NCBI GenBank assembly: GCA_018823135.1
Contig: JAHJJF010000126.1
Coordinates: 14,302-78,301 of the forward strand
Reading direction: 5' to 3'
DNA from: Pseudomonadota bacterium
Lineage (GTDB): Bacteria > Desulfobacterota > Desulfobulbia > Desulfobulbales > CALZHT01
DNA length: 64,000 nucleotides
The position numbers and the translations under genes are program-made. Below are positions 2,448-58,703 of this stretch, piece by piece. Numbering within the stretch: position 1 is the stretch's first letter; every line of letters begins with the position of its first letter. The notes beneath the pieces were generated by a model, which was not told where the DNA came from, did no database searches, and was given only the letters and a program-made list of their open reading frames with translations.

Positions 2448-4775
2448 TTACTTCCTTTTAACCTCTTTCCACATCGTACCCTTTTCCGTGTCAATTACAT
2501 TGATGCCCTGTTTGTTGAGTTCCTCGCGAACACCGTCGGCCTTTTCCCAATCTTTTTCCTTTCTCGCCTCTTCCCTTTCCTTGATGAGTTTATCGATCTC
2601 AGGAGTAAGTGGACAGAAATCGAGCCTTAATATATTGACGATGCTGTTTATTTTTTTGAGAGATTCGAGGAAATACCCCTTTTGATCACGGTCCAGCTGC
2701 CCTTCACTCAAAATTGAATTAGCCTTTTTAATACAATCAAAAACCGCAGCCATCGCCTTTGATATATTAAGATCATCATCAAGGGCTTGAAAAAACTTCT
2801 CTTCCATCTCAGTGAGATACGTTGCCACATGGGGATGAGGCAATCCCTGGGGCAGACAAAGAAGCTTTTGGGTGAATTCATCAAGGCGTTTGAGAATTTT
2901 TCGCGCATTATCAAGCCGTTTATAGGAAAAAAGAATCGGCTTTCTGTAATGAGTTTGAAGCAATAGCAGTCGGACCTCACGCGCAGAATAACCCTTATTA
3001 ATAACATCGGCCAGGGTAACAAAATTGTCCTGAGTCTTGGACATCTTTTTGCCGTCAACCAGGACCAGCTCGCTGTGCATCCAGTAGTTGGCAAGCTTCT
3101 TGCCGGTGAGCGCTTCGGAAATTGCTATCTCGTTTTCATGGTGCGGAAAGATAAGATCACGGCAGCTGGTATGGATATCAATTGTTTCTCCAAGATAATG
3201 ATGCACCATTGCCGCGCATTCAATATGCCAACCCGGTCTGACATTGCCCCATTCAGTCTCGTAGAATATGCCTTTTTTGAGCTCGGTGAGTGTTGAACGT
3301 TTCAAAAGAGTAAAATCAACCGGGCTGTCCTTCTCATAATTATCAAGATCAACGGTCTTGCCGAATTGAATCTTGCTCAAATCTACTCCGGAAAGTTTAC
3401 CGTAATTATTGAATTTAGAAATATCAAAATAGATGGAGCCATGCTTTTCATATGCAAAGCCTTTACCTATGAGTTGTTTGGAAATGTCAATCATGCCGTC
3501 GACATGTTTCGAAGCCTGGGGATAATGGGTGGCCTTTTTAACACCCAACAAGTCAATATCATTCTTGAATTGCTGAATAAATGAGCCGGTGAAATCTTTA
3601 AGTGATTCCCCGCTATTATCCGCACCATGAATGGTGTTGTCATCGAGGTCGGTAAAATTCATGCAGTACTGAACATCATAGCCTTTATTCGTAAGAACCC
3701 GGTTGATCAGATCAGAGAGGATGAATCGACGGCAATGCCCGAGATTTGCATTTTCATGAGCAGTGGGACCGCAGGCATAGAAGGTAACTTTACCCTCAAA
3801 AATCGGTTTAAAAACTTCCTTTTTCTTTGATAACGTGTTGTAAAATCGTAACAGGGATTTTTTTTCCTTCGGGCTCTCTTCCTTGGAAAACAGTGAGGTG
3901 CTGAGATACTTTTCACCACCGTCTGGAAAAATCACCACGAGCAAGCCTTCCTTGATCTGCTCGGCCCGGGTCAAAGCGGCACAGAACGCCGCCCCGGAAC
4001 TCATTCCAACAAAGATCCCTTCCTTTCTGGCTAGGAGTCTTGCCTTATCAAAGGCCTCTTCATCCGGAATATTAATGATCTGATACGGTAATTTTTTATC
4101 AAAAATACCTGGCGTATAGGATTCCTTCATGTTCTTGAGCCCCTGGATCTTATGGGCATAAAAAGGCTCCATGGCGGTAATTCTTACTTCCGGGTGATGT
4201 TCCTGAAAATACTTACAAAGCCCCATTGCAGTGCCGGTGGTGCCAAGGGTCGTAACAATATCGGTTACCTCGCCGTTGGTCTGTTCCCAGATTTCAGGAC
4301 CGGTATTGGTGTAATGGGATTTCCAGTTTGCTTCATTATTGAACTGATCAGTAAGAAAATATCGGTCCGGATGTTCGCGGGCCATGGCATAGGCCTGTTC
4401 TATGGCACCGTCAGTACTTTTCTTTGCGGGGGTTAGCAGGATATCCGCGCCGAAGGCAACCATTATCTTCCGGCGTTCAATACTTGCTGATTCCGGCATA
4501 ACGAGCTGACAGCGATATCCTTTGACTGCACAGACCATGGCGAGGCCGATGCCGGTATTACCGCTGGTTGCTTCTAAGACGATTTTATCAGGGGTAAGTA
4601 AACCCTTCTGTTCAGCATCATTAATCATGAACAGGGCAATCCTGTCTTTGACCGATCCCCCGGGATTAAACGATTCAAGCTTGGCAAAAATCTTAACTTT
4701 TGGATATGGATTAAGCCTGTTTATGGGAACTATCGGAGTATTTCCGATCCGATCAAGAATACTTGTAAATGCCAT
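2448..4775 (-). CDS. Fusion protein: PLP-dependent cysteine synthase (CysK/CysM-like, aa 1-296) plus full-length class I cysteinyl-tRNA synthetase-like module (aa 308-775)
   Basis: The N-terminal half has NPGGSVKDR (PLP lysine), SGNTGIGLA and GTTGT. The C-terminal half aligns by eye to CysRS: FYNTLSKKKEVFKP, YACGPT, WHIECAAM, FPHHENEIA, KMSKT. The HIGH position reads NLGH (nt 3735-3746). Confidence 0.85.
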   Translation of the reverse strand: MAFTSILDRIGNTPIVPINRLNPYPKVKIFAKLESFNPGGSVKDRIALFMINDAEQKGLLTPDKIVLEATSGNTGIGLAMVCAVKGYRCQLVMPESASIERRKIMVAFGADILLTPAKKSTDGAIEQAYAMAREHPDRYFLTDQFNNEANWKSHYTNTGPEIWEQTNGEVTDIVTTLGTTGTAMGLCKYFQEHHPEVRITAMEPFYAHKIQGLKNMKESYTPGIFDKKLPYQIINIPDEEAFDKARLLARKEGIFVGMSSGAAFCAALTRAEQIKEGLLVVIFPDGGEKYLSTSLFSKEESPKEKKSLLRFYNTLSKKKEVFKPIFEGKVTFYACGPTAHENANLGHCRRFILSDLINRVLTNKGYDVQYCMNFTDLDDNTIHGADNSGESLKDFTGSFIQQFKNDIDLLGVKKATHYPQASKHVDGMIDISKQLIGKGFAYEKHGSIYFDISKFNNYGKLSGVDLSKIQFGKTVDLDNYEKDSPVDFTLLKRSTLTELKKGIFYETEWGNVRPGWHIECAAMVHHYLGETIDIHTSCRDLIFPHHENEIAISEALTGKKLANYWMHSELVLVDGKKMSKTQDNFVTLADVINKGYSAREVRLLLLQTHYRKPILFSYKRLDNARKILKRLDEFTQKLLCLPQGLPHPHVATYLTEMEEKFFQALDDDLNISKAMAAVFDCIKKANSILSEGQLDRDQKGYFLESLKKINSIVNILRLDFCPLTPEIDKLIKEREEARKEKDWEKADGVREELNKQGINVIDTEKGTMWKEVKRK

Positions 4776-5240
4776 TCTATAGCCTTTGATAAATGAAGTT
4801 CAGCAGTTATTGATGGCGTCGCAAAAAGTAGCTAATGCATCGCGTCATGTTCACGAAATGCTCAACAGACCATACATGATATGTGTATGCATCTGCTTTC
4901 GCGACGACTCGACTCCTCGGAGTCTGCGCTTTCATGCATATCAACTTTTCGAAGTCTACGCAATCTACTAAGCCATCCTAAAACGATACGATGGACTTTT
5001 CAGGAGTCCAGCTGTTACTGATATTTTGTTACGAGTCTATTAATCAACCACGTTCAAGGCAAGTAACCCAAGATGGGAGACGAATACGATTCGTCCGAAA
5101 AAATATATACCAAGACGCCGAGCAACAGGCAATGCAATCAATGTCATATCCAAAAATGACGGATTAAAGATTACTTATCCGCAAGAAGCCGATGGAAATT
5201 TTAAAATAGCCGCACTTCGTTGAAATTTAAACAAAAAAAA

Positions 5241-5276
5241 GCAAGTTCCCGCTACAACGAGAACTTGCTTTTTTAT
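5241..5276. terminator. Bidirectional rho-independent terminator downstream of dsrP
   Basis: The stem GCAAGTTC (5241-5248) pairs with GAACTTGC (5261-5268). It is flanked by an A-run upstream and a T-run downstream. Confidence 0.7.
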
Positions 5277-5301
5277 AACAAACTTTTTTAAAACCTGGTG
5301 T

Positions 5302-6471
5302 TTATGATTCCTTCGCAAGCTTGACGCTTATCGCAACCTTATAAAGTATGGTGAGAATAAGGAACCCTGATGCCCACACACCCATTGTGATTGCGATTTC
5401 ACCAAAGGATGGGTAATACTCGGTAACATAATCCAACGGACTGGGGACAAAACCGCCGAGCACAAAACCCAAACCTTTGTCGATCCACAGAGAGAAAAAC
5501 ATGAGAAGACAGGCGATCATAATGGTTTTTTCATTTTTTCTTGTCTGAGGTGTAAAGAACAGCGCAAGGGAGGCAAAACCCATGATTACCGAAATCCACA
5601 TGAATTTGACAAGGTTATTATACATATGACCGTCATGCTCAAGGCCAAAGAAAAGATATTGCAGGGTATGTTTATGTCCTGGGATATTGCTGTAATATCC
5701 GACAAAAAATTCCAGGCCGACAAAAAAGAAATTCAGTAGAGCAGCATAACTGATAATGGTAATCAATTTCTGTGTGGCGGTCTCTCCAACATCGAATTTG
5801 CTAACCCTCTTCAAAATCAGAGCAATCAACAGAAGTAAAGATGGTCCTGCAGCAAAAGCTGAGGCGAGAAATCGAGGTGCGATAATCGCTGAAAGCCAAA
5901 AATGACGGCCACCAAGACCACAATAGAGCATTGCTGTTACTGTATGGATACTGATCGCCCAGGGAATTGAAAGATAGATAAAAGGCTTGAGCCATTTAGG
6001 CGGCGGCACTTCTTTAGCCTCGGAATTCAAAACTACCCATCCCACCAGGACATTCAGGAACAAATAGCCGTTAAGCACTATCATATCCCAGAAAAGCATG
6101 GAGTTCGGTGTCGGGTGCAAGAGAACATTCAAAGCGCGAGTCGGTTGACCTAAGTCGGCCATAATAAACATCAGACACATGGCAATGGCAGCAATTGCCA
6201 TAAATTCACCGAGAATGGTAATCCTGCCGAACGCCTTATAATTATGGACATAATAGGGGAGCACCAGCATGACACCCCCGGCGGCAACGCCGACAAGAAA
6301 GGTAAACTGAGAAATATAGATTCCCCAGGACACATCCCTGCTCATCCCTGTATATCCAAGACCATAGTTAAACTGTTGGACATAACATAATGCGCCGACT
6401 CCTATGATAGAGAGGAGAAAGATCATCCATGTCCAGTATCCTTGATTTCCCTTGAGTGCCTTTTCAATCAT
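5302..6471 (-). CDS. dsrP: DsrP, NrfD/PsrC-family integral membrane quinone-interacting subunit
   Basis: A polytopic membrane protein of NrfD length and character. It is the last gene of the M-K-J-O-P order. Confidence 0.8.
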   Translation of the reverse strand: MIEKALKGNQGYWTWMIFLLSIIGVGALCYVQQFNYGLGYTGMSRDVSWGIYISQFTFLVGVAAGGVMLVLPYYVHNYKAFGRITILGEFMAIAAIAMCLMFIMADLGQPTRALNVLLHPTPNSMLFWDMIVLNGYLFLNVLVGWVVLNSEAKEVPPPKWLKPFIYLSIPWAISIHTVTAMLYCGLGGRHFWLSAIIAPRFLASAFAAGPSLLLLIALILKRVSKFDVGETATQKLITIISYAALLNFFFVGLEFFVGYYSNIPGHKHTLQYLFFGLEHDGHMYNNLVKFMWISVIMGFASLALFFTPQTRKNEKTIMIACLLMFFSLWIDKGLGFVLGGFVPSPLDYVTEYYPSFGEIAITMGVWASGFLILTILYKVAISVKLAKES

Positions 6472-6482
6472 GACTTTTCACC

Positions 6483-7331
6483 TTATATGATGTAAAAAAC
6501 TGAAGGTAGGGTTCCCAGAGCTGGTTTACGTTGAATTGTAAATTTTGTCTTTAGGACCTTAGATATTTCCGAATGAGGATCATTCATATCACCGAAGTAC
6601 ATGGCTTGTGCACTGGCGGCAATCTCCACACATTTGGGCGGGAGATTCTCCGCAAGTCTTTCGGCGCAGAAATTACATTTTTCAACAACACCGCGCATAC
6701 GAGTTGGAAATTTTTCATTAAGATCTTTTATAAATTTCAATTTGCCATTTGCATCTTTCTCGCGGGGACTCCGCCAGTTAAAACTTCTCGCCCCGTATGG
6801 GCAGGCAGCCATGCAGAATCGGCAACCGATGCATCGATGGAAATCCATGATTACAGCACCGTTGGCAGCCTTGAATGTCGCCTTGGTCGGGCAGGCCCGG
6901 ACACATGGGGGATCATCACAATGGTTGCAGACTGCAAGAAACGGCAGTTGATGGAGTTCTTCATTCTTTTTATAATGGCTGTGATCCGGAAAGAGGTTTT
7001 CAAATTTTTCAATCCAGAGCCACTTGATTTCATCTTTGGGGTTGCCAAAATCAGGGACGTTATGAATCTGATGGCAGGCTGCTACACATTTTTCAGCCAA
7101 ACCTTTGTTTTCAGCAAACTTCTTGACATCAATCGCCAGTCCCAGGCGGACGCCGGTTGGTTTTTCCGCAGGCATCTCGCCGTGTGCATCACTAGGTGAA
7201 TCACTGTGGCCGGCAGAAGAGGAAGCCTGAACATTGCCTTTCATTAATAAATTTAATGCCGATGGCGCTGCAACACCCGCAATCGCGGACATCCCGGCGA
7301 TCTTCAATAAATTTCTACGCTTCATATCCAT
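6483..7331 (-). CDS. dsrO: DsrO, periplasmic Tat-exported 4Fe-4S ferredoxin-like subunit
   Basis: Twin-arginine signal MDMKRRNLLKIAGMSAIAG. Ferredoxin Cys clusters are present (CIGCRFCMAACP, CNHCDDPPC, CNFC). The start at 7331 overlaps the dsrJ TAA as TAATG, so the longer ORF-track start at 7400 is rejected. Confidence 0.8.
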   Translation of the reverse strand: MDMKRRNLLKIAGMSAIAGVAAPSALNLLMKGNVQASSSAGHSDSPSDAHGEMPAEKPTGVRLGLAIDVKKFAENKGLAEKCVAACHQIHNVPDFGNPKDEIKWLWIEKFENLFPDHSHYKKNEELHQLPFLAVCNHCDDPPCVRACPTKATFKAANGAVIMDFHRCIGCRFCMAACPYGARSFNWRSPREKDANGKLKFIKDLNEKFPTRMRGVVEKCNFCAERLAENLPPKCVEIAASAQAMYFGDMNDPHSEISKVLKTKFTIQRKPALGTLPSVFYII

Positions 7332-7708
7332 TACAGTGTCTCCTTGGGTAGGAAGTGGCAATCCCAACAATAGGGTTTGACAGATGCATATAGATGGCAT
7401 TGATCACAAAACTTCTCTTTGCTGGTATGGCAGACCATACAACCGTTCATCAGGCTTCTATCGTATGTTTTATTGCCGACTTTTAACTTTTCTCGATTAC
7501 CCTCGCGAAGAACATTATCGCGCCATTCGTTAAGCAGAACCATATGCGTAGTACGCATATACTGGGTGTCTTTGACACATTCCTTAACATCTTTAGGCTT
7601 TTCAACATTCGGGATGGCACCTGCATCGCCATGGTTGTACCAGATAGGAAATGTCATAAGGCCAGCAAAAATAATCAATCCGACTATTATTTTTCCACCG
7701 TCATACAT
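7331..7708 (-). CDS. dsrJ: DsrJ, membrane-anchored triheme cytochrome c
   Basis: Three CXXCH motifs (CMVCH, CDQCH, CWDCH) and one N-terminal TM helix. The start MYDGGKII at 7708 is preceded by GGAAGGG and follows the dsrK stop. Confidence 0.8.
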   Translation of the reverse strand: MYDGGKIIVGLIIFAGLMTFPIWYNHGDAGAIPNVEKPKDVKECVKDTQYMRTTHMVLLNEWRDNVLREGNREKLKVGNKTYDRSLMNGCMVCHTSKEKFCDQCHLYASVKPYCWDCHFLPKETL

Positions 7709-7712
7709 AATA

Positions 7713-9365
7713 TCACCCTTCCATTCCTGCAAGCGGAGCAAATCGAAGATCCTGATCGCGCTCTTTTTCACCATCCATTATCAGAGAATTTCCGACCAGT
7801 TCGGAAACGCCGCACACGCCAACATTTGGATTCCAGTATTCCATCAAAGCAAGCAGGGTAGCGCGATCAATAGCGCAGACACAGGAAAGCATGTTGACAC
7901 CGTATTTCTCTTCAACATATTTCACAGCATTTGCCCTAGGCAACCCGCCGCGCATCCTAAGTTCCATAATCTCACCGGTATTCAAGCCCGTGCCGCTGCC
8001 GCAGCAGAACGTCTGCTCACGAATGGCATTTTCCGGCATATCATGAAAATTATTGCAGACATTATTCAAAATATAGCGAGGTTCATCCAGCATCCCCATT
8101 CCCCGGGAAGGATTACATGAATCATGGAAAGTAACAACTCTATGGTCATTCCTGCTCTTATCTATCTTCAGTTTATTATGATAGATAAGGTCAGCAGTGA
8201 ATTCGCTGATATGAACCATTTTCAGGGCCGCGGCGTTATCAAAACGAGTACCGGTAATCGGCGATACGGGAATTTCCATGAAATCCCCCGGTTCATTCAT
8301 TGTCGCCATATATTGATGGACAACCCGCCACATATGGCCGCATTCACCGCCGAGGATCCACTTGACCCCCAGTCGTTTGGCCTCGGCGTACATCTTTCCG
8401 TTAAGCTTCTTCATCAATTCATTATTGGTAAACGATCCGAAGTTTCCGCCCTCTGATGAATAGGTGCTTATCGTATAGTCAAGCCCGATATGATCAAAAA
8501 TCAGCAGATAGCCCATAAAGGTAAATATGCCAGGATCGGCAAAAACATCTGCTGAAGGAATGACAAAAAGCACTTCAGCGCCTTTGCGATTGAAGGTCAA
8601 ACTGTTCAAGTGGATACCGGTTACTTCTTCGATATCATCGAGCAGAAATTCAGCATTTTCCTTGAAGGTATGGGGCTGAAGCCCGAGATGATTGCCGGTG
8701 CGGTTGGAATTTGCCGCAGGCTCAAGTATCCAGTTGGTGCCGACTCCGACCAGGTGGAGAAGTTCACGGGCCATCATGGTTATTTCTGCAGTGTCAATAC
8801 CATATGGACAGAAGACCGAGCATCTCCGACATTCAGTACACTGGTAAAAATACATGAACCATTCCTTCAGAACTCCAAAGGTCATTGGTCGCGCCCCGGC
8901 GAGTTTGCCAAGTATTTTTCCAGCCTTGGTGAAATCGTTTCTATAAACGGAACGCAGAAGTTCGGCTCTTAGAACCGGCATATTCTTCGGATCGCCGGTA
9001 CCCAGGAAGAAATGGCATTTATCTGCACAGGCGCCGCAACGAACACAGCAATCCATGAAGATTTTAAAGGAACGGAATTTATCAAGACGTTCCCTGATGC
9101 CGTTGATGATTATTTCCTTCCAGTTTTCCGGCAGTTTCCAGTCATCGCTTTCAACGTCCCATTCTCTGGGCTCGCCGAAAAGACCCGGTAAGCTTTTATT
9201 GTGGTACGCGACCATGCTGGCTTTTGCTGGATAACAATAATTCCCGGGCTTGAAAATTGCCGGAACATCCATCCAGTCTCTGGTCGGGATGGCTCCCGTC
9301 ATCAGAGAAGGATCTCTAGCAACCATAACACCTAATTCATCTGCTTTCGGCTGTGCCATTTTCAT
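7713..9365 (-). CDS. dsrK: DsrK, HdrD-like catalytic iron-sulfur subunit
   Basis: Contains CVRCGACADKC and CTECRRCSVFCP ferredoxin motifs and the CCG-domain signature FCCGSGTG. Confidence 0.85.
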   Translation of the reverse strand: MKMAQPKADELGVMVARDPSLMTGAIPTRDWMDVPAIFKPGNYCYPAKASMVAYHNKSLPGLFGEPREWDVESDDWKLPENWKEIIINGIRERLDKFRSFKIFMDCCVRCGACADKCHFFLGTGDPKNMPVLRAELLRSVYRNDFTKAGKILGKLAGARPMTFGVLKEWFMYFYQCTECRRCSVFCPYGIDTAEITMMARELLHLVGVGTNWILEPAANSNRTGNHLGLQPHTFKENAEFLLDDIEEVTGIHLNSLTFNRKGAEVLFVIPSADVFADPGIFTFMGYLLIFDHIGLDYTISTYSSEGGNFGSFTNNELMKKLNGKMYAEAKRLGVKWILGGECGHMWRVVHQYMATMNEPGDFMEIPVSPITGTRFDNAAALKMVHISEFTADLIYHNKLKIDKSRNDHRVVTFHDSCNPSRGMGMLDEPRYILNNVCNNFHDMPENAIREQTFCCGSGTGLNTGEIMELRMRGGLPRANAVKYVEEKYGVNMLSCVCAIDRATLLALMEYWNPNVGVCGVSELVGNSLIMDGEKERDQDLRFAPLAGMEG

Positions 9366-9433
9366 TCTTCCTTATAAGCTGATGTTTCTTGCTTGTGACA
9401 GCTCTAAATTTCTCCGGAGCTGGTATTTCCCTA

Positions 9434-10471
9434 TTACTCTTTAGCGGTTTCATCTGCTGCAGCTGGAGGCGGTGGCAATTCCTTTTCCACCGGCAGTCCC
9501 GCGTCAACCATGAACTCACGGAAATCATCCTCATAACCGGCATAGGAATGCGGTTTGATATTCGGATCGTTCCAAGGATTTACATGGCGGACCGAGCGAC
9601 TATTGTTGGCAAGATTCCGCGTCGGACTCATGAACACCCCGCCCAGATGCATCAATTTACTGAATGGGAAATAAGCCATGAGCGTACAAACCAGTGCAAC
9701 ATGGATAAAAAAGATTGATCCTATTTCACCAGTAAACTGCGGTGAAAAGGTGACCAGACCCATAAGCAATTTCTTGATGCTATCGATATCGACACGCAAA
9801 AAATAACGCATCAGGATACCGGTGCTGGCGATACCAAAAATAAGCAGTAATGGGAAATAATCGTTTGCAAGTGAAATGTAACGAATCTGGGGCATAAGAA
9901 CCCGGCGCACAAAAAGAAAGGTGACGGCAAGAAGTAAAATAAGACCCGACTGGTACAGAACCGGAACGCCGAGCTGCATAATACCGTCACCGAATTCCAA
10001 GGCCTGTACAAAAGATGGGACAGGATTGGTAAAAAGGCGCAAATGCCTTATAACAATAACAAGAAATGAATAATGAAACATCAGGCCGAACAGCCAGAGA
10101 TATTTACTTGAGCCGTATACCAGTTTTGGGCCGTCATGTACTTCCGCCTTCGTGTTTCTGAACAACGATCTGAAAAGAAATACCTCCAGAGCCATTCGGA
10201 TAAGCACGCCACTCAGGGTAGACGGATCATCAATCTTATCCTGTTTAATCCATGGCAACGAAGCAGCCTGACCACAGGTAGTTGGAATGCGGAATGGCAC
10301 CGGTGATTTCCCCCAATTTGTCACCCGGTAGATAAAGCCGCCGAGGAAAATTGCGAAGGTCACATAAGGTAAAACCACCCCAAACAACCATTGCCCTCCG
10401 GACACTTGCGCTCCGATAAGTGCCAATAGGATAATTGCCAAGACCGCAATTAAGGGATACAGGATTTTCAT
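9434..10471 (-). CDS. dsrM: DsrM, NarI-like dihaem cytochrome b membrane subunit
   Basis: A polytopic membrane protein that is first in the dsrMKJOP order. Its size and topology fit the NarI/HdrE type. Confidence 0.75.
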   Translation of the reverse strand: MKILYPLIAVLAIILLALIGAQVSGGQWLFGVVLPYVTFAIFLGGFIYRVTNWGKSPVPFRIPTTCGQAASLPWIKQDKIDDPSTLSGVLIRMALEVFLFRSLFRNTKAEVHDGPKLVYGSSKYLWLFGLMFHYSFLVIVIRHLRLFTNPVPSFVQALEFGDGIMQLGVPVLYQSGLILLLAVTFLFVRRVLMPQIRYISLANDYFPLLLIFGIASTGILMRYFLRVDIDSIKKLLMGLVTFSPQFTGEIGSIFFIHVALVCTLMAYFPFSKLMHLGGVFMSPTRNLANNSRSVRHVNPWNDPNIKPHSYAGYEDDFREFMVDAGLPVEKELPPPPAAADETAKE

Positions 10472-10641
10472 TTACTGTTACCTCGCATCAAGTTGTACTG
10501 TGAATGTTGATGATCTCTTAAAACGCCAAAAAAATTATACGCTTCTACCCGCCTCAGGCGGATTAAAGATTAATAAGAGGGAAACGCGTCAGTTGAATCT
10601 TTTCGTTGTCATGTTGGTCTCGCTTTCCAACATGACGGACA

Positions 10642-11247
10642 TCAACCCTGAATATTCTTTCCCTGAGCTTTTTCTCTTCGCACCACCGAGGAGGGACAGG
10701 GCATACCGTCGGTCAAGATGTGATTTCCCCTGGCGAATTCGTTTAACCGCACCTTGAAAATCCTTTCACGACTTTCCATATAAAGATCAAGAATCATGGA
10801 GCCGATTTTGTCCACCCTGGAATCTAATTCCATCCATTCATCCATACTCGGTTCGGGAAATTTTTCTTTACGGCAACAATTAAGGACGATTTTTTTCAGA
10901 TCGTAAACAAAATAAACGGCCTGGGATGGGGTGAAATCCTGTACCGCTCTGATTCTGACAAGTTGCTCAATGATCGAAGTGGCATTAACTGTTTCATCAT
11001 CACCACAGAATATTTTATAAAGATCAGTAAGACCCTGCTTGATACTGTGGCCCAATGGATTTGCAATCTGATCTTTTTGTTTTTGAAGAAAACGGTGTGC
11101 ACCTTCAGGATACGTATTCATGACGCTGTCAATCCATTGACCGAGAATACTTTCCTTATTTTCTTTCAAAAAAACCTGCAATTCCATAATATAATTAAAT
11201 TTTCCCAGGAAGTTAAAATCAGCGGCCTTGAAAATATGAATGCCCAT
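10642..11247 (-). CDS. Hypothetical protein, probably an RsbRD N-terminal-like (non-haem globin-like sensor) domain protein; start uncertain (11247 or 11187)
   Basis: The all-helical sequence QWIDSVMNTYPEGAHRFL...ANPLGHSI...VRIRAVQDFTPSQAVYFVYDLKKIV recalls the RsbRD_N family from memory. No clear Shine-Dalgarno precedes either ATG. Confidence 0.4.
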   Translation of the reverse strand: MGIHIFKAADFNFLGKFNYIMELQVFLKENKESILGQWIDSVMNTYPEGAHRFLQKQKDQIANPLGHSIKQGLTDLYKIFCGDDETVNATSIIEQLVRIRAVQDFTPSQAVYFVYDLKKIVLNCCRKEKFPEPSMDEWMELDSRVDKIGSMILDLYMESRERIFKVRLNEFARGNHILTDGMPCPSSVVRREKAQGKNIQG

Positions 11248-11397
11248 TCAGTAAAGTAAGAGAATTCCTAGCATGTTTAAAATCATTTTTCAACAAGAAA
11301 AAACAAGGGGCTTAAAAAAGGAGACCCAACATGTAAACCAGGAAGTACAACTTGAAGAAATCTTTGAGAATCAGGAACAGGGGATCAACCATTACCA

Positions 11398-11823
11398 TCA
11401 GGAGAGTGTATCAACGATCAAGCCGGTTTCATGATGCAGATTTGCCAATAAATGAGGAAGCTCGTCAAGGTCAATTACCATGTCCCGGACAATCGTACAG
11501 ACATGTTCGTTTGTACAATCGTAAACATCGAGAAAAAAACCGTCGTTGTCCTTGATCAGAACTAGATGAATCATTATGCCATGTGATTCCAGATTCTGAT
11601 TTACCCGATCAATCATGTTACGCACGTCATTTTGTTCGGCCTCAGACAGTGCTATCCTTTTCCCGGGCTTGTCCTCCCTGCTTTTTCTCCTGTTCCAGGC
11701 ACCTGAAAATCTGTCGATCCGCTTGACATGCGCTGCCCTTTCGGCGGGATCCATATCCTTGCGAAGTTCCTCGGGACTGCTGGCTGGAAGCGGCGAGGGA
11801 TTTTTTATTTCCTGAATAACCAT
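11398..11823 (-). CDS. Hypothetical small protein with a FlaG-like C-terminal pattern
   Basis: The C-terminus VNQNLESHGIMIHLVLIKDNDGFFLDVYDCTNEHVCTIVRDMVIDLDELPHLLANLHHETGLIVD resembles the FlaG family consensus as recalled. It lies 8 nt downstream of recD2. Confidence 0.35.
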   Translation of the reverse strand: MVIQEIKNPSPLPASSPEELRKDMDPAERAAHVKRIDRFSGAWNRRKSREDKPGKRIALSEAEQNDVRNMIDRVNQNLESHGIMIHLVLIKDNDGFFLDVYDCTNEHVCTIVRDMVIDLDELPHLLANLHHETGLIVDTLS

Positions 11824-39576: not shown

Positions 39577-39861
39577 ATGGGCATTATATTGATCATTCTG
39601 GGCCTGCCCTTTTTCCTTTCAGGCTCCATCGGACTCATACGCCTGCCGGATATCTACAACCGCCTGCATGCATTGACCAAAGCCGATAATGTCGGGCTCG
39701 GCTTTATACTTCTCGGTCTGACCCTGCAGGCAGATAACCTTACAAGCCTTTTCAAACTATTCTTTATCTGGATACTGGTACTCATCGCCAGTTCAGCCTC
39801 CTGCCACCTCATCGCCCGCAGCGCAATCCGCAAAGGAATCAAACCATGGTCCCGCCAATGA
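39577..39861 (+). CDS. mrpG: Mrp/Mnh antiporter subunit G
   Basis: GSIGLIRLPDIYNRLHALTKADNVG motif. An alternative GTG start lies at 39559. Confidence 0.7.
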   Translation: MGIILIILGLPFFLSGSIGLIRLPDIYNRLHALTKADNVGLGFILLGLTLQADNLTSLFKLFFIWILVLIASSASCHLIARSAIRKGIKPWSRQ

Positions 39862-40844
39862 ACATCATGCTCGCCGGATTTGATATCATCCTGATCGCCT
39901 CGCTGCTCTGGCTTGCCTGGAACATTCTTGCAACAGATGATATTTTCAAGGCAGTTGTACTCTTTATATCTTTCAGCCTGCTCATGGCCCTTTGCTGGGT
40001 GAGGTTACATGCTCCTGATGTTGCAATGGCCGAAGCAGCAATCGGCGCAGGTCTCACCGGCCCGTTATTTCTTGCAGCCCTCAGGCGCATGAAACGTATC
40101 CATAAATCCGAACGCAGAATGGACCTGGAAGAAAAACGCCCGGATCAACAACAAACCGCCGGTCCGGCTTCCGGAAGATTCAATCCTGTATTATTGATGC
40201 TTATCCTGCTGCTTGCCTGCCTCACCGGTTTACTGGCCGTTGTCAGCGGCATCCTGCCCGTGCAGACCGAAGGGCTGGGAAACCTTGTTGCCGACCACCT
40301 GCCGCGCAGCGGCGTAACCAGTCCGGTAACCGCAGTTCTCCTTAACTTTCGCGGGTATGACACCTTGCTGGAGATAATGGTACTCCTGGTGGCGGTAATC
40401 GGCGTCTGGTCCCTGAACCCGGCACCCATGCCCAGACAGACCATGGATACCAGCCCTGTACAGGTATCCCTGGTCCGGTTACTTGCACCGGTTATGACGC
40501 TGGTGGCTTTCTATCTGGTCTGGCAGGGAGCCGCCAGAGTCGGCGGCGCCTTTCAGGGCGGAGCGGTTCTCGGCGGTGCAGGAGTCCTGTTGCTGGTTAC
40601 CAATTTCACCTGGCTGCATGCCATACCTTCCCGACCGCTTCGCCTCGGCCTGACCCTGGGCCCGACAGTCTTTCTCGGCATCGCCGTCTGGTGCATGATC
40701 AGCAATGGAACCCTTCTGGCTTACCCGGAATCCTCGGCCGGTTCATTGATCCTGGTAATCGAAACAGCCTGCGCTCTTTCAATCGGCATTTCGCTCACCG
40801 CCCTTTTTGCAGGAGGAAGACCGAATGATTCTCTCTCCGAGTAA
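39858..40844 (+). CDS. Fusion of a DUF4040-like (MrpA C-terminal-type) segment and an MnhB domain
   Basis: The N-terminus DIFKAVVLFISFSLLMALCWVRLHAPDVAMAEAAIGAG is DUF4040-like. The later segment SPVTAVLLNFRGYDTLLEIMVLLVA is MnhB-like. The start forms an ATGA overlap with the G stop. Confidence 0.6.
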   Translation: MNIMLAGFDIILIASLLWLAWNILATDDIFKAVVLFISFSLLMALCWVRLHAPDVAMAEAAIGAGLTGPLFLAALRRMKRIHKSERRMDLEEKRPDQQQTAGPASGRFNPVLLMLILLLACLTGLLAVVSGILPVQTEGLGNLVADHLPRSGVTSPVTAVLLNFRGYDTLLEIMVLLVAVIGVWSLNPAPMPRQTMDTSPVQVSLVRLLAPVMTLVAFYLVWQGAARVGGAFQGGAVLGGAGVLLLVTNFTWLHAIPSRPLRLGLTLGPTVFLGIAVWCMISNGTLLAYPESSAGSLILVIETACALSIGISLTALFAGGRPNDSLSE

Positions 40845-40920
40845 TGCCCGGAAATATCATCTGCTGAAGACGACTCCCAAGACCGAATATGTTCAAAGTG
40901 AGACACTGAGAGAATAAGTC

Positions 40921-41250
40921 ATGAACACCAACCTCCTTTATGACCTTGCCGGAATACTTTTAGTCGCCTTCGGACTGTTCGCTTTGATAGTCTGCGCACA
41001 CCCTTTACGGAAAATTCTGGCGGTGAACATCATGTCAACAGGGGTTTTTCTTGTTTTCATTGCAACCGCATATGGAACCGGCATGGAAGCAGTCGATCCG
41101 GTTCCGCAGGCAATGGTCCTCACCGGCATCATCGTCTCATTGAGCATCACCGCCCTGGCGCTTATTCTGGCCTGTCGAATCCAGGAAACAACCAATCTTT
41201 TCCGGCTCCGGTCAGAGAAATCCGAGGATCAGAGGGCAATTGAATCATGA
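40921..41250 (+). CDS. mrpC: Mrp subunit C (NuoK-like)
   Basis: A 109 aa three-TM protein containing PVPQAMVLTGIIVSLSITALAL. Confidence 0.7.
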   Translation: MNTNLLYDLAGILLVAFGLFALIVCAHPLRKILAVNIMSTGVFLVFIATAYGTGMEAVDPVPQAMVLTGIIVSLSITALALILACRIQETTNLFRLRSEKSEDQRAIES

Positions 41251-42761
41251 TGCACCTTGATGCACCTTTCTGGATAGTCTGCCCGGTCATCCTGCCGATA
41301 TCAGCAGCCCTGCTCTGCTTCATCAGCCAACGCAGATCTCCAATTATCGCCTTGACAGCCGCCTCTGGAAATATCCTGGCTGCAGGCATTCTTTTCAGAC
41401 ACTTATCACTATTCGGTGCCCGCCAGTATATGCTCGGCAACTGGCCCTCTCCCCTGGGCATTTCCCTGAACCTCGACGCCCCGGCACTGCTGATGCTGGC
41501 GATGACCGCGGTTACCGGACTGGGCATTACACTCTATGCACGAGGATATTTTCTGTTCCGTCTCGCTGCGAAGCATTCGGACACCCACAAGGCCCAGGAA
41601 CAATATTTCTGGCCATTATGGATGATGCTCCTGGCGGCGCTGAATGCCCTTTTTCTGTCCAATGACATTTTCAATCTCTATGTAACCCTTGAGCTTTTAA
41701 GCATTTCAGCAGTCGCCCTCGCCGCACTTTCACGAAAACCCGCATCACAGATAGCCGCTTTCCGCTACCTCCTGGTCAGCCTCCTGGGATCAACCGGTTA
41801 TCTGCTGGGAGTGGCCCTGCTCTATAAGTTCTACGGAGTCCTTGATCTGAGTATGCTTCGGGAGTTGATTACCTCCGAACCCGGGGCACAGACAGCCCTG
41901 GTGCTGATCAGTGTCGGCCTTTTGCTTAAAACTGCGGTCTTTCCCCTGCATTTCTGGCTTCCTCCCACTCATGCAAACGCCCTGGCGCCGGTGAGCGCAA
42001 TCCTTTCAGGGCTTGTGGTGAAAGCATCGTTCTACCTGATGTTCCGCCTCTGGTTCGATGTTTTTACCCCGGTAATTTCCCCACAGGCACTTAATCTCAT
42101 GGGTATTATGGGGGCAGGGGCGATTCTCTGGGGAGCGGTGCAGGCCATGCGCCAAACACGTCTGAAACTGCTTATTGCCTATTCCACCGTTTCGCAGCTG
42201 GGTTATCTTTTCATCGCTTTCCCCCTTGTCCGCCTGGACAGCGGCCCGCATGCCTGGAACGCCGTCATCCTGATGGCCATGGCCCATGCCTGTGCAAAGT
42301 CCGCAATGTTCATGGCAGCGGGCACGATCTCCCTGCATTTCAACCATGACCGGATCAATGATCTAACCCGCGTCAGAGAATTTCTGCCCATGACTGTTTT
42401 CGCCTATGGTATTGCCGGGGCCAATCTCATGGGGATTCCTCCTTCCGGGGGATTCATCGCCAAATGGCTCCTGCTCACCTCGTCATTTAACACATCACAA
42501 TGGTGGTGGGGACTGATTGTCATAGCCGGCAGTCTCCTGGCGGCTGCATATGTCTTCAAAGTCATCAGCAGGCTTTTTGTTGTCATCCCTTCGGAACAGA
42601 CCCTTTTAATCCGCCGGCAGCACAGCGCATCCCTTGAATTCCCGGCTCTGGCCATGGCGATCATTTCAATGCTGATGGGAATACTATACCCCTACATCGA
42701 CCAGATCCTTTCCCTTGAAGGAACTTTCAAGTCGGCTTTTATTGCAGGAGGGATTCCATGA
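41247..42761 (+). CDS. mrpD: Antiporter-like subunit 1 (MrpD/NuoN family)
   Basis: TLELLSISA...LLKTAVFPLHFWLPPTHANALAPVSAILSGLVVK...AYSTVSQLGY. The start forms an ATGA overlap with C. Confidence 0.8.
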   Translation: MMHLDAPFWIVCPVILPISAALLCFISQRRSPIIALTAASGNILAAGILFRHLSLFGARQYMLGNWPSPLGISLNLDAPALLMLAMTAVTGLGITLYARGYFLFRLAAKHSDTHKAQEQYFWPLWMMLLAALNALFLSNDIFNLYVTLELLSISAVALAALSRKPASQIAAFRYLLVSLLGSTGYLLGVALLYKFYGVLDLSMLRELITSEPGAQTALVLISVGLLLKTAVFPLHFWLPPTHANALAPVSAILSGLVVKASFYLMFRLWFDVFTPVISPQALNLMGIMGAGAILWGAVQAMRQTRLKLLIAYSTVSQLGYLFIAFPLVRLDSGPHAWNAVILMAMAHACAKSAMFMAAGTISLHFNHDRINDLTRVREFLPMTVFAYGIAGANLMGIPPSGGFIAKWLLLTSSFNTSQWWWGLIVIAGSLLAAAYVFKVISRLFVVIPSEQTLLIRRQHSASLEFPALAMAIISMLMGILYPYIDQILSLEGTFKSAFIAGGIP

Positions 42762-44257
42762 ACGCACAGGGATGGCTTCTCCTCTCCATACTTTTCTGTT
42801 CATTCGTCCCTGGAATCATCATCTTCACCCTGCGCGAGGAAAGCACCTATCTGCGGACCAGCCTGAACCTTCTGGGCGCAACCCTGCTGATCACCCTTAT
42901 CCTGATCATGGACGTCGGCATCTACCTCGGCCAAACCTACGAAATCCGCCTGCCGGTTCTTGAAGGCCTGGAATTAATCCTCAACGCCGATCCCCTTGCC
43001 GCTCTCTTTACCACATTATCCGGCGTGCTCTGGTTTCTCACCACCATCTACGCCGTGGGTTACCTGGAAGACTCGCCCAACCGCAGCCATTTCTTCGGCT
43101 ATTTCAGCCTGTGCATCACGGTCACCACCGGCATCGCCCTGGCAGGCAACCTGGTGACATTTTTCCTGTTTTATGAAATGCTTACCCTGACCACCTATCC
43201 GCTGATCATCCACCGCGGCACTCCCGCCGCACTCCGGGCCGGCCGCAATTATCTGATTTATACCCTGAGCGGCGGGGCGGTCTTTCTGTTTGCCGTGGCA
43301 TGGTTGCAGACATTAGCAGGATCAACGGAATTCACTGCCGGAGGATTTTCGCCCCTCCTCCTAGAAGGCCACAGCACCGAACTTACCGTTATTTTCACCT
43401 TGATGATCCTTGGTGTCGGCGTCAAGGCAGCCATGTTCCCCCTGCACGGCTGGCTGCCCCAGGCCATGGTGGCCCCGGCGCCGGTAAGTGCCTTATTGCA
43501 TGCCGTTGCCGTGGTCAAAGCCGGCGCCTTCGGCATAATCCGCATTGTCCTTGACGTCTACGGCATCGAAAACACCCAAAGCCTCGGACTGTTAACGCCC
43601 CTCACTACCGCTGCCGCCATAACCATTATTTACGGATCGATCCGGGCAATCCAGCAGGACGATCTTAAGCGACGACTGGCCTTTTCTACGGTGAGCCAGA
43701 TATCCTACATCATCCTCGGGGTCAGTATGGCCTACCAACCCCTGACGGCAATCGGCGGACTGGTGCATCTCGTTCACCAGGGACTGATGAAGATCACCCT
43801 GTTCTTCTGCGCCGGCAACCTGGCAGAAACCCTAGGGATACACAATATAAGCGAAATGCAGGGGGTCGGCCGCCGCATGCCGCTGACCATGGCGGCATTC
43901 ACTGTCGGCGCCCTGGGGATGATCGGCATTCCGCCCACTGCCGGATTTGTCAGCAAATGGTATCTCGGGATGGGCGGTCTTGAAGCCGGGAATTGGTGGA
44001 TCATCGCCGTGCTGGTGATCAGCAGCCTGATGAACGCCTTTTATTTTCTACCCATTATACTTGGGGCATGGTTTAAAGAACCAACCGGCCCCTGGCCGGA
44101 GGCTCGTGACTTCGGCCGCCTGGAAACGGGCTGGATGCTGCTGTTGCCGCCCTTGATTACCGCCCTTGCGGTGATAATCGTCGGACTCCTTGCCAATGCC
44201 CAGATGAGTCCTCTGGCCTGGGCAGAGTTCATCGCTGCCAGGGAGTACGGACGATGA
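42758..44257 (+). CDS. Antiporter-like subunit 2 (MrpD/NuoM family)
   Basis: FYEMLTLTTYPL...VKAAMFPLHGWLPQAMVAPAPVSALLHAVAVVKAG...FSTVSQISY. Confidence 0.8.
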   Translation: MNAQGWLLLSILFCSFVPGIIIFTLREESTYLRTSLNLLGATLLITLILIMDVGIYLGQTYEIRLPVLEGLELILNADPLAALFTTLSGVLWFLTTIYAVGYLEDSPNRSHFFGYFSLCITVTTGIALAGNLVTFFLFYEMLTLTTYPLIIHRGTPAALRAGRNYLIYTLSGGAVFLFAVAWLQTLAGSTEFTAGGFSPLLLEGHSTELTVIFTLMILGVGVKAAMFPLHGWLPQAMVAPAPVSALLHAVAVVKAGAFGIIRIVLDVYGIENTQSLGLLTPLTTAAAITIIYGSIRAIQQDDLKRRLAFSTVSQISYIILGVSMAYQPLTAIGGLVHLVHQGLMKITLFFCAGNLAETLGIHNISEMQGVGRRMPLTMAAFTVGALGMIGIPPTAGFVSKWYLGMGGLEAGNWWIIAVLVISSLMNAFYFLPIILGAWFKEPTGPWPEARDFGRLETGWMLLLPPLITALAVIIVGLLANAQMSPLAWAEFIAAREYGR

Positions 44258-45999
44258 CCGATTATTTTTCCACCAATGCCATTCAGGCCTTTCTTTTATC
44301 GCTGGCTCCCGGGCTTCCCCTGGTGACTGCCTGTGCCTTTCTGGTCCCATCAATACGGTCACTGGCATACAGATTATTTCCCTGGGCGGCCTTACCCGCT
44401 TTACTGGTAGCTCTTTTTGGTTCGACTACTGTGGCCATCGAAATCCCCTGGTTTTTCATGGGAGGCCGCATCGGTCTCGATGACTTAGGTAAAACCTTTT
44501 TGCTGTTCACCTCTTTTCTCTGGCTGGTATCAGGATTATTCGGCCGGGAATACCTGGCGGACGACACCAAACGTTTCCGTTTCCAGATCTTTTATCTCCT
44601 GGCGATGAGTGGTAATTTCGGGCTCATCCTTGCCCAGGACATGCTGAGCTTTTATCTGTTTTTCACCCTGATGAGCTTTGCCGCCTACGTGCTGATTATC
44701 CATGATGGCAGCGACAAAGCCCGCCGTGCAGGCCGGATCTATCTCTGGCTGGTGGTGGTGGGCGAGGTCATCCTCTTTACCGGCATGATCATTCTTGCAC
44801 AAACTTCCTCAAGCATGGCTTTCAGCAAAATAGATAAAGACCTCTCCGGGATTATTCTGCTTGCACTCCTTTTCCTGGGATTCGGAATCAAAGCCGGCGC
44901 CTTGCCGCTTCATTTCTGGCTGCCGGTGGCCCATCCTGCCGCACCTTCCCCGGCCAGTGCAGTCTTAAGCGGCACAATGATCAAAGCCGGCCTCCTGGGC
45001 TGGCTCCGCTTCCTCCCGGTGGGCAGCACAAACCTCACAGAAGGGGGAATATTCTTTCTGATCGCCGGACTTCTTGCGGCATTCTATGGTATTACCGCAG
45101 GTTTCTTCCGAAACAATCCGAAAACCGTGCTGGCCTATTCCAGCATCAGCCAGATGGGACTGATGACAGTCATCGTCGGCAGCGGCATGATCCTCCCCCA
45201 GATCTGGCCGAAGGCAGTAACCGCTGCATCACTGTATGCCTTCCATCATTGCCTGGCCAAAGGCAGTCTTTTTCTTGCAACAGGTGTGGCAAAGAATGGC
45301 TGGAATAGAGGAATTCCGGCATGGTTGTTTCGCGCCGGCCTCATCCTGCCGTCCCTGGCCCTTGCCGGTATGCCGTTCACCAGCGGCGCAATAGCCAAGT
45401 CGGCATTGAAAAGTATAACCACCAATCTTCCCGAACCATGGCATGAAGTATGCTCTATTCTGTTACCGCTGGCCGCCGTCGGTACCATGGCGCTGCTCGT
45501 ACATTTCCTCAGACTCACCTGGCAGCCATCCAGGCAAGACAATAGGCATGGCCAGGGACTTCGCAGGGCGTGGATGTTCAATCTGGCCGGCGTCGCTGTC
45601 ACCCTGTGGCTATGGCCCGGCTCAGAAACAGCGGCACGCCATTCCCTTACTCCGGGCACGGTGATTCACGGCCTCTGGACTGTGGCGGCAGGCTGTCTGC
45701 TGGCTTTCGCCTTAACAAGACTGATCAGACAGCGCCCAACTGCTCAAGAAAGCCATCCCGGGGTTGATTCCTTCCCGCAGAAAATTTTCAAAAAACTCTT
45801 CCTGCATTGCTTTCCGGACAGATCAGCGCGGGGGCAACATGGGGATTTATCGAAGTACAAAGTAGATGGGAGAAACACCAGGTTTCAAGTAATTGAAGTG
45901 CAGTTGGGGAAAATTGAGAAAATTTTCGGAAGATGGACAATCAGCGGTTTATTTTTTCTGATGATCAGCATCCTGATCATCTTATCGCTGAGGTCCTGA
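44254..45999 (+). CDS. Antiporter-like subunit 3 (MrpA-N/NuoL-like) with a unique tail of about 100 aa
   Basis: IKAGALPLHFWLPVAHPAAPSPASAVLSGTMIKAG...AYSSISQMG. The C-terminal region has no recognisable match and ends in one TM helix. Confidence 0.75.
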   Translation: MTDYFSTNAIQAFLLSLAPGLPLVTACAFLVPSIRSLAYRLFPWAALPALLVALFGSTTVAIEIPWFFMGGRIGLDDLGKTFLLFTSFLWLVSGLFGREYLADDTKRFRFQIFYLLAMSGNFGLILAQDMLSFYLFFTLMSFAAYVLIIHDGSDKARRAGRIYLWLVVVGEVILFTGMIILAQTSSSMAFSKIDKDLSGIILLALLFLGFGIKAGALPLHFWLPVAHPAAPSPASAVLSGTMIKAGLLGWLRFLPVGSTNLTEGGIFFLIAGLLAAFYGITAGFFRNNPKTVLAYSSISQMGLMTVIVGSGMILPQIWPKAVTAASLYAFHHCLAKGSLFLATGVAKNGWNRGIPAWLFRAGLILPSLALAGMPFTSGAIAKSALKSITTNLPEPWHEVCSILLPLAAVGTMALLVHFLRLTWQPSRQDNRHGQGLRRAWMFNLAGVAVTLWLWPGSETAARHSLTPGTVIHGLWTVAAGCLLAFALTRLIRQRPTAQESHPGVDSFPQKIFKKLFLHCFPDRSARGQHGDLSKYKVDGRNTRFQVIEVQLGKIEKIFGRWTISGLFFLMISILIILSLRS

Positions 46000-55279: not shown

Positions 55280-55317
55280 TATATCTATTCCTCCTTAATT
55301 GCTCAGTTCAGAAATCA

Positions 55318-56643: not shown

Positions 56644-56873
56644 TCGTGTTCTCTCCTTCTCTAGTTCTTTTCTGTGATCGGCAAAACCAAAGCCTCGCAC
56701 CCTGCCGGAAAAGAAAATCTCTTTTCTTGTTCCGCCCGGGAAAAAATTTAGTCCCGTCAGAAAATCCGTTCCTTGCGCTCATGCGAGACCGACAAAGATT
56801 AAATAAAAGTGACGCTAATGTTACTTGTTAAGATATACCCCTCCTTTCTTTATTTATTCTTAAGACCAAATAA

Positions 56874-57620: not shown

Positions 57621-57719
57621 ATGCTCCCCCAAAAAATGCCCATGCAAGAGTTTCTTTACAATTACTGAATACAACATCCCAAAACACTGAAATATCCCGA
57701 AAATCTTTTTACTGATTTA

Positions 57720-57757
57720 TACCACAGTGTGGTAGTGAATATGCCACATTGTGGTAT
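57720..57757. promoter_or_regulatory. Two palindromic operator-like sites 22 bp apart centre to centre
   Basis: TACCACAgTGTGGTA (57720-57734, perfect 7-1-7) and CCACAtTGTGG (57744-57754). They lie in the divergent SPFH/GNAT intergenic region. Confidence 0.5.
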
Positions 57758-58678: not shown

Positions 58679-58703
58679 GTTTCATATGAAATAATCCGGT
58701 TTA

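Follow-up and report, generated by a model that had tools for sequence, protein, structure and literature searches.

We identified a gene that fuses a CysM-type cysteine synthase, a pyridoxal 5'-phosphate (PLP) enzyme, to a module derived from cysteinyl-tRNA synthetase (CysRS) in a 64,000-nucleotide stretch of contig JAHJJF010000126.1 (hereafter the window), which comes from a bacterium of the order Desulfobulbales. Across its family the CysRS-like module is under strong selection in its cysteine pocket and tRNA-binding domain, whereas the ATP-site signatures that define a class I synthetase are not. By analogy with the HisZ-HisG and GCN2 systems, we hypothesize that the module serves as a sensor or scaffold tying cysteine synthesis to free cysteine and/or to the state of tRNACys, a reading to which we give a probability of roughly 0.45. 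We consider it improbable that the fusion is a housekeeping CysRS, and equally so that it resembles MshC or a persulfide synthase in function.

Architecture of the fusion protein

The first-pass annotation of this DNA, made from its letters alone, described a single 775-residue frame that joins a CysK/CysM-type enzyme to a CysRS-like module. We confirm this frame and place it on the minus strand, which that annotation had not named. Translation runs from an ATG start to a stop codon at 2448-2450 with no interruption, and plus-strand translation of 2448-4775 meets many stops. The motifs picked out earlier (SVKDR, the linker, YACGPT, NLGH at nt 3735-3746, WHIEC, HHENE and KMSKT) all lie where they had been placed. 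The features of the gene are as follows.

2448-4775, minus strand: whole fusion open reading frame (ORF), 775 residues plus stop; GenBank MBU0729897.1 / MBU1710913.1, recorded as 'cysteine--tRNA ligase'
3888-4775, minus strand: CysM-type PLP module, residues 1-296 (Pfam PALP; TIGR01136 above cut-off)
4641-4655, minus strand: SVKDR with the PLP lysine, residues 41-45
4551-4568, minus strand: TSGNTG carboxylate loop of the CysM half
4230-4244, minus strand: GTTGT phosphate loop of the CysM half, in which an SSGAA motif is also present
3852-3887, minus strand: linker, residues 297-308, rich in Lys/Glu/Ser and variable in sequence over the family
2901-3851, minus strand: CysRS-like Rossmann/connective-peptide catalytic module, residues 309-625 (Pfam tRNA-synt_1e; alignment to 1LI5)
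3762-3779, minus strand: YACGPT of the Zn/cysteine pocket, residues 333-338
3723-3746, minus strand: NLGH plus CRRF, the degenerate HIGH element, residues 344-351 (NLGH alone, residues 344-347)
3216-3230, minus strand: WHIEC of the Zn/cysteine pocket, residues 516-520
3153-3173, minus strand: HTSCRDL, counterpart of the canonical H-G-G-G-x-D-L, residues 535-541
3129-3143, minus strand: HHENE of the Zn/cysteine pocket, residues 545-549
3033-3047, minus strand: KMSKT, residues 577-581, with the second Lys kept in the window protein
2616-2900, minus strand: stem-contact/DALR helical domain, residues 626-720 (Pfam DALR_2; alignment to 1LI5 and 8QHP)
2451-2615, minus strand: C-terminal anticodon-binding domain, residues 721-775 (Pfam CysS_C)

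Pfam assigned PALP to residues 7-285 (E 2.6e-72), tRNA-synt_1e to residues 322-625 (E 3.7e-96), DALR_2 to residues 660-713 and CysS_C to residues 723-769, and the NCBIfam cysS equivalog TIGR00435, whose cut-off is 340, gave the protein 434.5 bits. The 120 best protein clusters, all recorded as "cysteine--tRNA ligase" and drawn from Desulfobulbaceae, Desulfurivibrionaceae and Desulfobulbia metagenome-assembled genomes (MAGs), are each 771-815 residues long and 71-78% identical to the window protein over 99-100% of its length; the linker has no invariant column among them and a mean top-residue frequency of 0.38. An assembly or frameshift artefact is ruled out, because the fusion is kept in more than 100 clusters and in 350 GTDB genome stretches (one genome per GTDB species was scanned), so that at least 350 GTDB species carry it. 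The architecture is common but uncharacterised.

AlphaFold2 modelled both halves confidently (mean predicted local distance difference test score, pLDDT, of 82) around a linker with pLDDT below 50 at residues 289-305, and gave a predicted template-modelling (TM) score of 0.59 for the whole. Foldseek matched the halves separately, one to CysRS (8QHP, 1U0B and 1LI5, with MshC lower; TM-scores of 0.79-0.92 against 1U0B and 8QHP) and the other to CysM/CysK. Neither Foldseek nor sequence searches of the PDB returned a solved structure with both halves.

The CysM half is intact in all its catalytic motifs. It scored 361.6 bits against a cut-off of 344 with TIGR01136 (cysKM) and is closest to the CysM enzymes of E. 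coli and Salmonella, with E. coli CysM 2BHT as the best solved match (E 3.3e-76). The features expected of a fold-type-II PLP enzyme (the PLP lysine, the carboxylate and phosphate loops and the serine at the pyridine nitrogen) are all in place, and the PLP lysine, TSGNTG, GT[TS]GT and SSGAA are 100% conserved among 120 homologues. Its short loop is of the CysM type, aligns with that of CysM without gaps and carries an invariant K214 at the position of E. coli R210. Equivalog models for CysM proper (349.6 against a cut-off of 394.2 for TIGR01138; 327.5 against 413 for NF008735), like those for CysK and MshC, score the fusion below their own cut-offs. The loop at residues 206-224 (about nt 4104-4160; HKIQGLKNMKESY.PGIF) does not vary between family members, although its pLDDT in the AlphaFold2 model is below 50; it sits where the substrate-specificity loop of CysM lies (E. 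coli R210/R211). It may resemble the O-phosphoserine loop of M. tuberculosis CysM, a likeness on which we make no claim.

Conserved and degenerate sites of the CysRS-like module

Residue positions in this module follow E. coli CysRS numbering. Family site tables were built from the 120 best homologue clusters and from an independent set of 78 species-level genes, and were compared with about 250 canonical CysRS sequences, comprising 131 diverse representatives and 119 of archaeal type. Over its full length the CysRS half can be aligned with both E. coli CysRS 1LI5 and 8QHP, NLGH standing opposite HIGH; the structure-based alignment to canonical CysRS gives 35-39% identity and the same four-domain layout.

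The residues that hold cysteine and contact tRNA are kept. Equivalents of C28, T68, W205, C209, H234 and E238 are invariant both in the 120 homologues and in the 78 species, and with G29, T31 and H206 they form a set present in 78/78 species-level genes. The same is true of the CysS_C residues R423, D436, R439, G446, D451 and G455 (78/78), which in the window protein are R734, D747, R750, G757, D762 and G766 (nt 2478-2576). Overall, columns that are at least 98% invariant among the 120 homologues make up 37% of the catalytic module and 35% of the anticodon domain.

The ATP site departs from the canonical enzyme at all three of its elements. NLGH had been flagged in the first-pass annotation as a non-canonical sign, and this reading holds: canonical H-x-G-[H/N] occurs in 0/78 species, while H37 and G39, together with G226 and K269, are found in 100% of the canonical sequences (131 + 119), which rules out NLGH as a normal CysRS variant. 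Position 37 in the 78 species is N, S, D or T, position 39 is S, G, A, L or P, and position 40 is L, H or M, with Leu40 in 37 of them. The cultured Desulfopila aestuarii reads NLLLCRRF and KMSHE, NLSL also occurs among the species, and variants in the 120 homologues include NLSH, NLGH, NLAH, HLAH, TLAH, SLGH, TLDH and others. In the G-G-x-D element, which by analogy with class I synthetases in general would be ribose-binding, the window's HTSCRDL replaces Gly226 by Ser and Gly227 by Cys; position 226 is Ser in 73/78 species and Ala in the other 5/78, and positions 227 and 229 vary over the family. The window protein, with its KMSKT, retains K269, but only 4/78 species and 13/120 clusters do so; across the 120 homologues this position can hold A, R, K, S, P or Q, followed by E or D at position 270. 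Because all three elements vary among relatives that are 65-78% identical, the ATP-site elements are not under selection, and the position of K269 seems equally free within the fusion family.

The family has also fixed new residues, namely C41, R43, T168, L184, R186, S226 and I241. R168, W184 and Q241, which like G227 and D229 are nearly or fully invariant in the canonical sets, have thereby become T, L and I. The DDKIIK segment of E. coli CysRS reads DDNTIH in the window (K73 to N, K76 to H); position 73 is Asn in 119/120 clusters and 74/78 species, and position 76 varies across the family (Q/R/K/N/L).

Distribution and ancestry

Results on taxonomy and gene neighbourhoods refer to the best 80 of the 350 stretches. 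These 80 all belong to Desulfobulbales (Desulfocapsa, Desulfofustis, Desulfopila aestuarii DSM 18488, isolate M19 and Ca. Desulfatifera), and RefSeq holds a member from Hydrosulfovibrio ferrireducens (WP_423124448.1). The fusion is 65-78% identical across the order and lies in housekeeping neighbourhoods.

We searched 1.84 billion representative sequences exhaustively with the CysRS half and found its nearest relatives to be a group of 12 representatives in which HIGH is degenerate and followed by an additional Arg, and KMSKS has decayed to KMSR or further. In a neighbour-joining (NJ) tree the group forms one monophyletic, long-branched clade apart from canonical CysRS (bootstrap 96/100), with members reaching down to about 41% identity. 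Nearly all of them are fused to CysK/M or are pieces of such proteins that lack the N-terminal part. Two members appear to stand alone, but each follows a separate PALP gene on its own strand after a gap of 2-5 bp (in L089, PALP at 9108-9998 and the CysRS-like gene at 10001-11455; in L091, PALP at 4209-5126 and the CysRS-like gene at 5131-6537); both represent the two-gene unit in split form. The partnership of the CysRS-like module with CysK/M is ancient and obligate.

The ATP site is degenerate in every clade member, and differently in each sublineage. Zinc ligands or pocket residues have also been lost in several: C209S in P0126; T68N and C209S in P0130/P0286; C209A and E238V in P0176; E238V in P0129/P0150; and E238T in P0148, with T68G also seen in the clade. 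D349, R423, D436, R439 and D451, by comparison, do not vary in any member whose sequence extends over the anticodon domain. Since the ATP site is degenerate throughout and zinc ligands are missing from several members, the function shared by the clade cannot be aminoacylation; what its members have in common is the integrity of the anticodon domain and the CysK/M partner. New residues are fixed clade-wide (R43, T168, L/F184, R186 and I/M/V241), which argues for a new function rather than decay. Arg43 is a synapomorphy of the clade, and CRRF directly after a degenerate HIGH is specific to it.

The closest canonical sequences are archaeal; relatives of P0134, the nearest canonical representative without a fusion, come from Woesearchaeota, Bathyarchaeia, Aenigmarchaeota and Nanoarchaeia. 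The canonical-motif protein closest to the clade, P0127 (768 aa, from a Nanoarchaeota MAG; MFW6014224.1), is itself a CysK-CysRS fusion with HIGN, GGxD and KMSKS, and is a candidate for a true bifunctional enzyme or an ancestor-like state. The clade may thus descend from a fusion that was at first bifunctional and gave up its synthetase chemistry afterwards. A stand-alone CysRS-like protein of 460 aa on a 2.4-kb NCBI contig (P0135) has HIGS and lacks the KMSK lysine; it combines L184, R186 and I241 with F43 and R168, joins the degenerate clade in 40/100 bootstraps, and may represent a further degenerate lineage.

Proposed role of the CysRS-like module

We propose that a CysM-type cysteine synthase has become permanently coupled to a CysRS-derived pseudo-synthetase. 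The zinc pocket of this module would still bind L-cysteine or the cysteinyl end of Cys-tRNACys, and its anticodon-binding domain would still bind tRNACys. These two elements are what recognising Cys-tRNACys, or telling it from uncharged tRNACys, needs. Standard ATP-dependent activation of cysteine would have been lost from the module, as its motif residues suggest for adenylation, and ordinary Cys-tRNACys would be supplied by a separate synthetase; we infer that a second cysS lies elsewhere in the genome. The direction and nature of any such regulation are speculative.

The HisRS-like domain of GCN2 is a pseudo-synthetase that keeps tRNA binding and controls the enzyme to which it is attached. 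GCN2 differs from the fusion in being a eukaryotic kinase, in not being specific for a single tRNA and in having no amino-acid pocket. HisZ has no anticodon-binding domain and is a separate subunit paired with the first enzyme of its pathway, whereas in the fusion no part is better conserved than the anticodon domain, the module is joined to the final enzyme of the pathway, and the two usually share one polypeptide. HisZ is the HisRS-like regulatory subunit of the ATP phosphoribosyltransferase HisG (PMC9734150). The likeness lies in an aminoacyl-tRNA synthetase paralogue without synthetase catalysis that is the obligate partner of the cognate amino-acid biosynthetic enzyme, with an amino-acid pocket kept and available for feedback, as the pocket is also kept in the fusion. 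The HisZ-like traits found in the clade are catalytic motifs that are not conserved and an obligate association with CysK/M, either by fusion or as a 2-5 bp operon.

Several observations weigh against the sensor or scaffold hypothesis. An intact pocket and intact tRNA-binding residues are also expected of a working synthetase, and the fixed basic residues R43 and K/R265 could in principle compensate for those lost. Few members are less degenerate than the window protein, which keeps H40 and K269. The HisZ analogy is imperfect in that HisZ does without an anticodon-binding domain. A tblastn search of the window and of the 80 loci (about 20 kb each) with E. coli CysRS and P0140 recovered the fusion alone and no further cysS, and the AlphaFold2 model has no confident inter-domain packing that would lend structural support to allosteric coupling. 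Finally, E. coli CysRS with the K269A change remained able to support translation in a cell-free system (PMC5660078), so loss of K269 alone is weak evidence for lost activity.

Alternative explanations

Two alternatives also assign tRNACys a central place. Cyclodipeptide synthases are class I synthetase-like proteins without HIGH or KMSKS that use aminoacyl-tRNAs, and the module could similarly dock tRNACys with an aminoacyl-tRNA as the substrate of the fusion. Its fold-type-II PLP domain would then convert O-phosphoseryl- or O-acetylseryl-tRNACys to Cys-tRNACys in the manner of SepCysS, or Cys-tRNACys would serve as an activated cysteinyl donor as in cyclodipeptide synthesis. The anticodon-domain residues are the sole clade-wide invariant, even where zinc ligands are lost, and dispensable ATP motifs are what an already activated substrate would lead one to expect; a PLP beta-replacement enzyme is the module's obligate partner, and enzymes of the CysM type, whose short loop is present in the fusion, have an open active site. 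Set against these points is the TSGNTG loop for a free carboxylate, whose complete conservation suggests a free amino acid as substrate and not an ester. Moreover, neither SepRS nor another mischarging enzyme is encoded in the window or the 80 neighbourhoods, and the predicted model does not juxtapose the active sites. The SepRS-SepCysS(-SepCysE) system likewise couples a cysteine-making PLP enzyme to recognition of tRNACys, but with a class II SepRS, a fold-type-I SepCysS and a known mischarging step (PMC5424206, PMC8762117); these surveys mention neither Desulfobulbales nor the fusion. On balance we regard tRNA-dependent chemistry as unlikely. The related idea that the module is a tRNACys reader making cysteine synthesis tRNA-dependent seems to us rather doubtful: either the PLP domain would act on a precursor borne by tRNACys, a third and SepCysS-independent route to Cys-tRNACys, or the charging of tRNACys would gate the cysteine synthase, a protein analogue of a T-box.

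The first-pass annotation had also considered that the fusion channels new cysteine into ordinary charging. As a true bifunctional enzyme, perhaps the sole CysRS of its host, it would need a rewired ATP site in which residues such as R43 and K/R265 stand in for H37 and K269. The full CysRS domain set with a TIGR00435 score above cut-off, the invariant zinc pocket and tRNA-binding residues, the new basic residues fixed near the old motifs, the high conservation in a housekeeping context, the missing second cysS in the regions searched and the activity of the E. coli K269A enzyme are all compatible with this, and P0127 indicates that the architecture can be a working synthetase. HIGH, G-G-x-D and KMSKS are nevertheless replaced or drifting among close relatives at positions where some 250 canonical enzymes never vary, some species retain no His in 'HIGH' at all (NLLL, NLSL), and sister lineages that have lost zinc ligands cannot bind cysteine in the CysRS manner. 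Charging by the fusion is thus disfavoured, and we consider it improbable.

The same annotation looked to a non-canonical reaction, by analogy with MshC or with the persulfide-forming activity of CysRS. Its general direction is supported, but neither analogy is. MshC-type ligases make Cys-AMP, and the ATP-site motifs needed for this are degenerate in the fusion. A tRNA-independent cysteine ligase or sulfur-transfer enzyme would fit the kept cysteine pocket, the attached PLP enzyme, the sulfur-metabolising hosts and the dsrMKJOP genes adjacent in the window's subclade. However, the fusion has the anticodon-binding domain that MshC lacks, a terminator-like hairpin stands between dsrP and the gene, and only one subclade shows the linkage to dsr. 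Persulfide synthesis by CysRS depends on the PLP-binding lysines K73 and K76 (KIIK) and on K266 and K269 (KMSK) (PMC5660078), of which K73 is Asn in the family and K76 and K269 vary. We hold this explanation to be very improbable, and rate just as low the notion that the CysRS-like half is an inert relic and only the CysM half matters. Degenerate catalytic motifs, a flexible linker and the absence of predicted inter-domain packing might be expected of a relic. The density of invariant columns in both the catalytic module and the anticodon domain, the fixed clade-specific residues, the age of a clade that spans such low identities and the persistence of the pairing after gene fission would not.

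Comparison with known CysRS paralogues and fusions

Canonical CysRS (TIGR00435; 1LI5/1U0B, 8QHP) shares with the fusion its domain layout, Zn/cysteine pocket and anticodon-domain residues, and differs in having intact HIGH, G-G-x-D and KMSKS and no N-terminal CysM; the closest canonical relatives are of the archaeal type, from DPANN and Bathyarchaeia. A 2022 review listed only MshC and the Desulfobacterales CysRS* as CysRS paralogues, the latter charging a SelC-like tRNA, linked to SelC*/SelB* and without an anticodon-binding domain (PMC9437257). Both derive from CysRS and keep the cysteine pocket, as the fusion does, but unlike it they are active ATP-dependent ligases that have no anticodon-binding domain and are not coupled to cysteine synthase. 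The alignment of MshC to the fusion ends before the anticodon domain, and the MshC model TIGR03447 reached 210.2 bits against a cut-off of 485.1. An identity with CysRS* is ruled out, given that the anticodon domain is present and that the only tRNA gene nearby encodes tRNA-Arg(UCU).

Cysteine-pathway enzymes have joined CysRS more than once. CysE-CysRS fusions of about 710 aa (the P0170 family; L087 6001-8136) are standard in Nitrospirota (Thermodesulfovibrionales, Dissulfurispira thermophila) and represent a second, independent cysteine-pathway/CysRS fusion in sulfur-cycling anaerobes. Like the Desulfobulbales protein, P0127 and the P0170 family carry an N-terminal cysteine-biosynthesis enzyme, but their HIG[HN], GGxD and KMSKS are canonical, which makes it plausible that they are truly bifunctional as synthetases. 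CysRS was often accompanied by paralogues in a survey of 2588 genomes, which offers no detail bearing on the fusion (PMC5388404). Our search of the full-text literature, whose coverage excludes most subscription journals, returned nothing relevant on fusions or paralogues combining cysteine synthase and CysRS. Within that coverage the fusion family appears undescribed, and all public records call it "cysteine--tRNA ligase".

These records pass TIGR00435 without the class I catalytic signature residues, and the label extends to thousands of database proteins; in our first protein search alone, 7,996 proteins matched the query at E <= 1e-20. Pathway reconstruction and marker-gene sets based on TIGR00435 can be misled as a result. 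If the proposed role is right, the family would join MshC and CysRS* as a third type of CysRS paralogue, the first with a link to cysteine biosynthesis and the first in which the ATP site is lost but tRNA recognition is kept. The link between tRNACys and cysteine synthesis would then be testable in culturable sulfur-cycling bacteria, as the family includes the cultured Desulfopila and relatives of Desulfocapsa. If, on the other hand, the genomes hold no other cysS, the fusion would be a class I synthetase that works without HIGH or KMSKS.

Genomic neighbourhood

Directly upstream of the fusion in the window, a dsrMKJOP-like cluster occupies 5302-10471 on the minus strand and comprises NrfD, Fer4_11, a small cytochrome-like ORF, Fer4_8/17 and Nitrate_red_gam. 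The strong terminator-like hairpin between dsrP and the fusion lies at 5274-5235 and has an 18-bp stem, and linkage to dsr was seen in only about 17 of the 80 related loci. The genes upstream in Desulfocapsaceae, identified by eye from their translations, are glnB, glnD, glnA and a 199-aa ORF that, again judging by eye, we take to be DUF721-like. The 526-nt leader of the fusion gave no Rfam match of any kind when examined for a regulatory RNA such as a T-box or riboswitch. No cysE, second cysK/M, SepRS or sulfur-carrier gene was found in the window or in the conserved neighbourhoods, and none of cysE, SepRS or a sulfur carrier is conserved there as a functional partner. Two other canonical CysRS representatives lie in unrelated gene contexts.

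Downstream, at 1932-2008 on the minus strand, stands an ordinary tRNA-Arg(UCU) gene (A20, A/G73), followed by a terminator-like hairpin at 1923-1893. The same tRNA gene follows the fusion on the same strand in 57/78 Desulfobulbales loci; the distance between the two has a median of 130 bp and is 439 bp in the window, and this linkage holds although the upstream context differs between subclades; the tRNA may be co-transcribed with the fusion. We set it aside as a ligand of the module, since this tRNA-Arg is an ordinary one and the anticodon-domain residues kept by the module are those of canonical CysRS, which charges tRNACys. Beyond it, at 1012-1749 on the minus strand, lies a gene for an HTH_17 + PTS_EIIA_2 protein.

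In L091 the split PALP/CysRS-like pair is followed directly by a 246-aa ThiF-family (E1-like) gene at 6553-7293, near which no ThiS-like ORF was recognised. It could hint at a thiocarboxylate sulfur donor (cf. M. tuberculosis CysM/CysO) or be an unrelated TcdA-like protein.

Beyond the window start, at L088 13761-22328, lies a multi-subunit membrane complex with three Proton_antipo_M proteins, NADHdh, Complex1_49kDa and Oxidored_q6, of Ech/Mbh/Hyf-like type, and a separate Mrp-type cluster occupies window positions 39846-45999. A TauE/SafE family protein (in Pfam, sulfite exporter) is encoded at 46049-46906. A second NrfD and 4Fe-4S (Fer4_11) pair is found at 54479-62829 on the minus strand, adjoining two ORFs of about 480 aa with NapC/NirT-type cytochrome c N-terminal regions.

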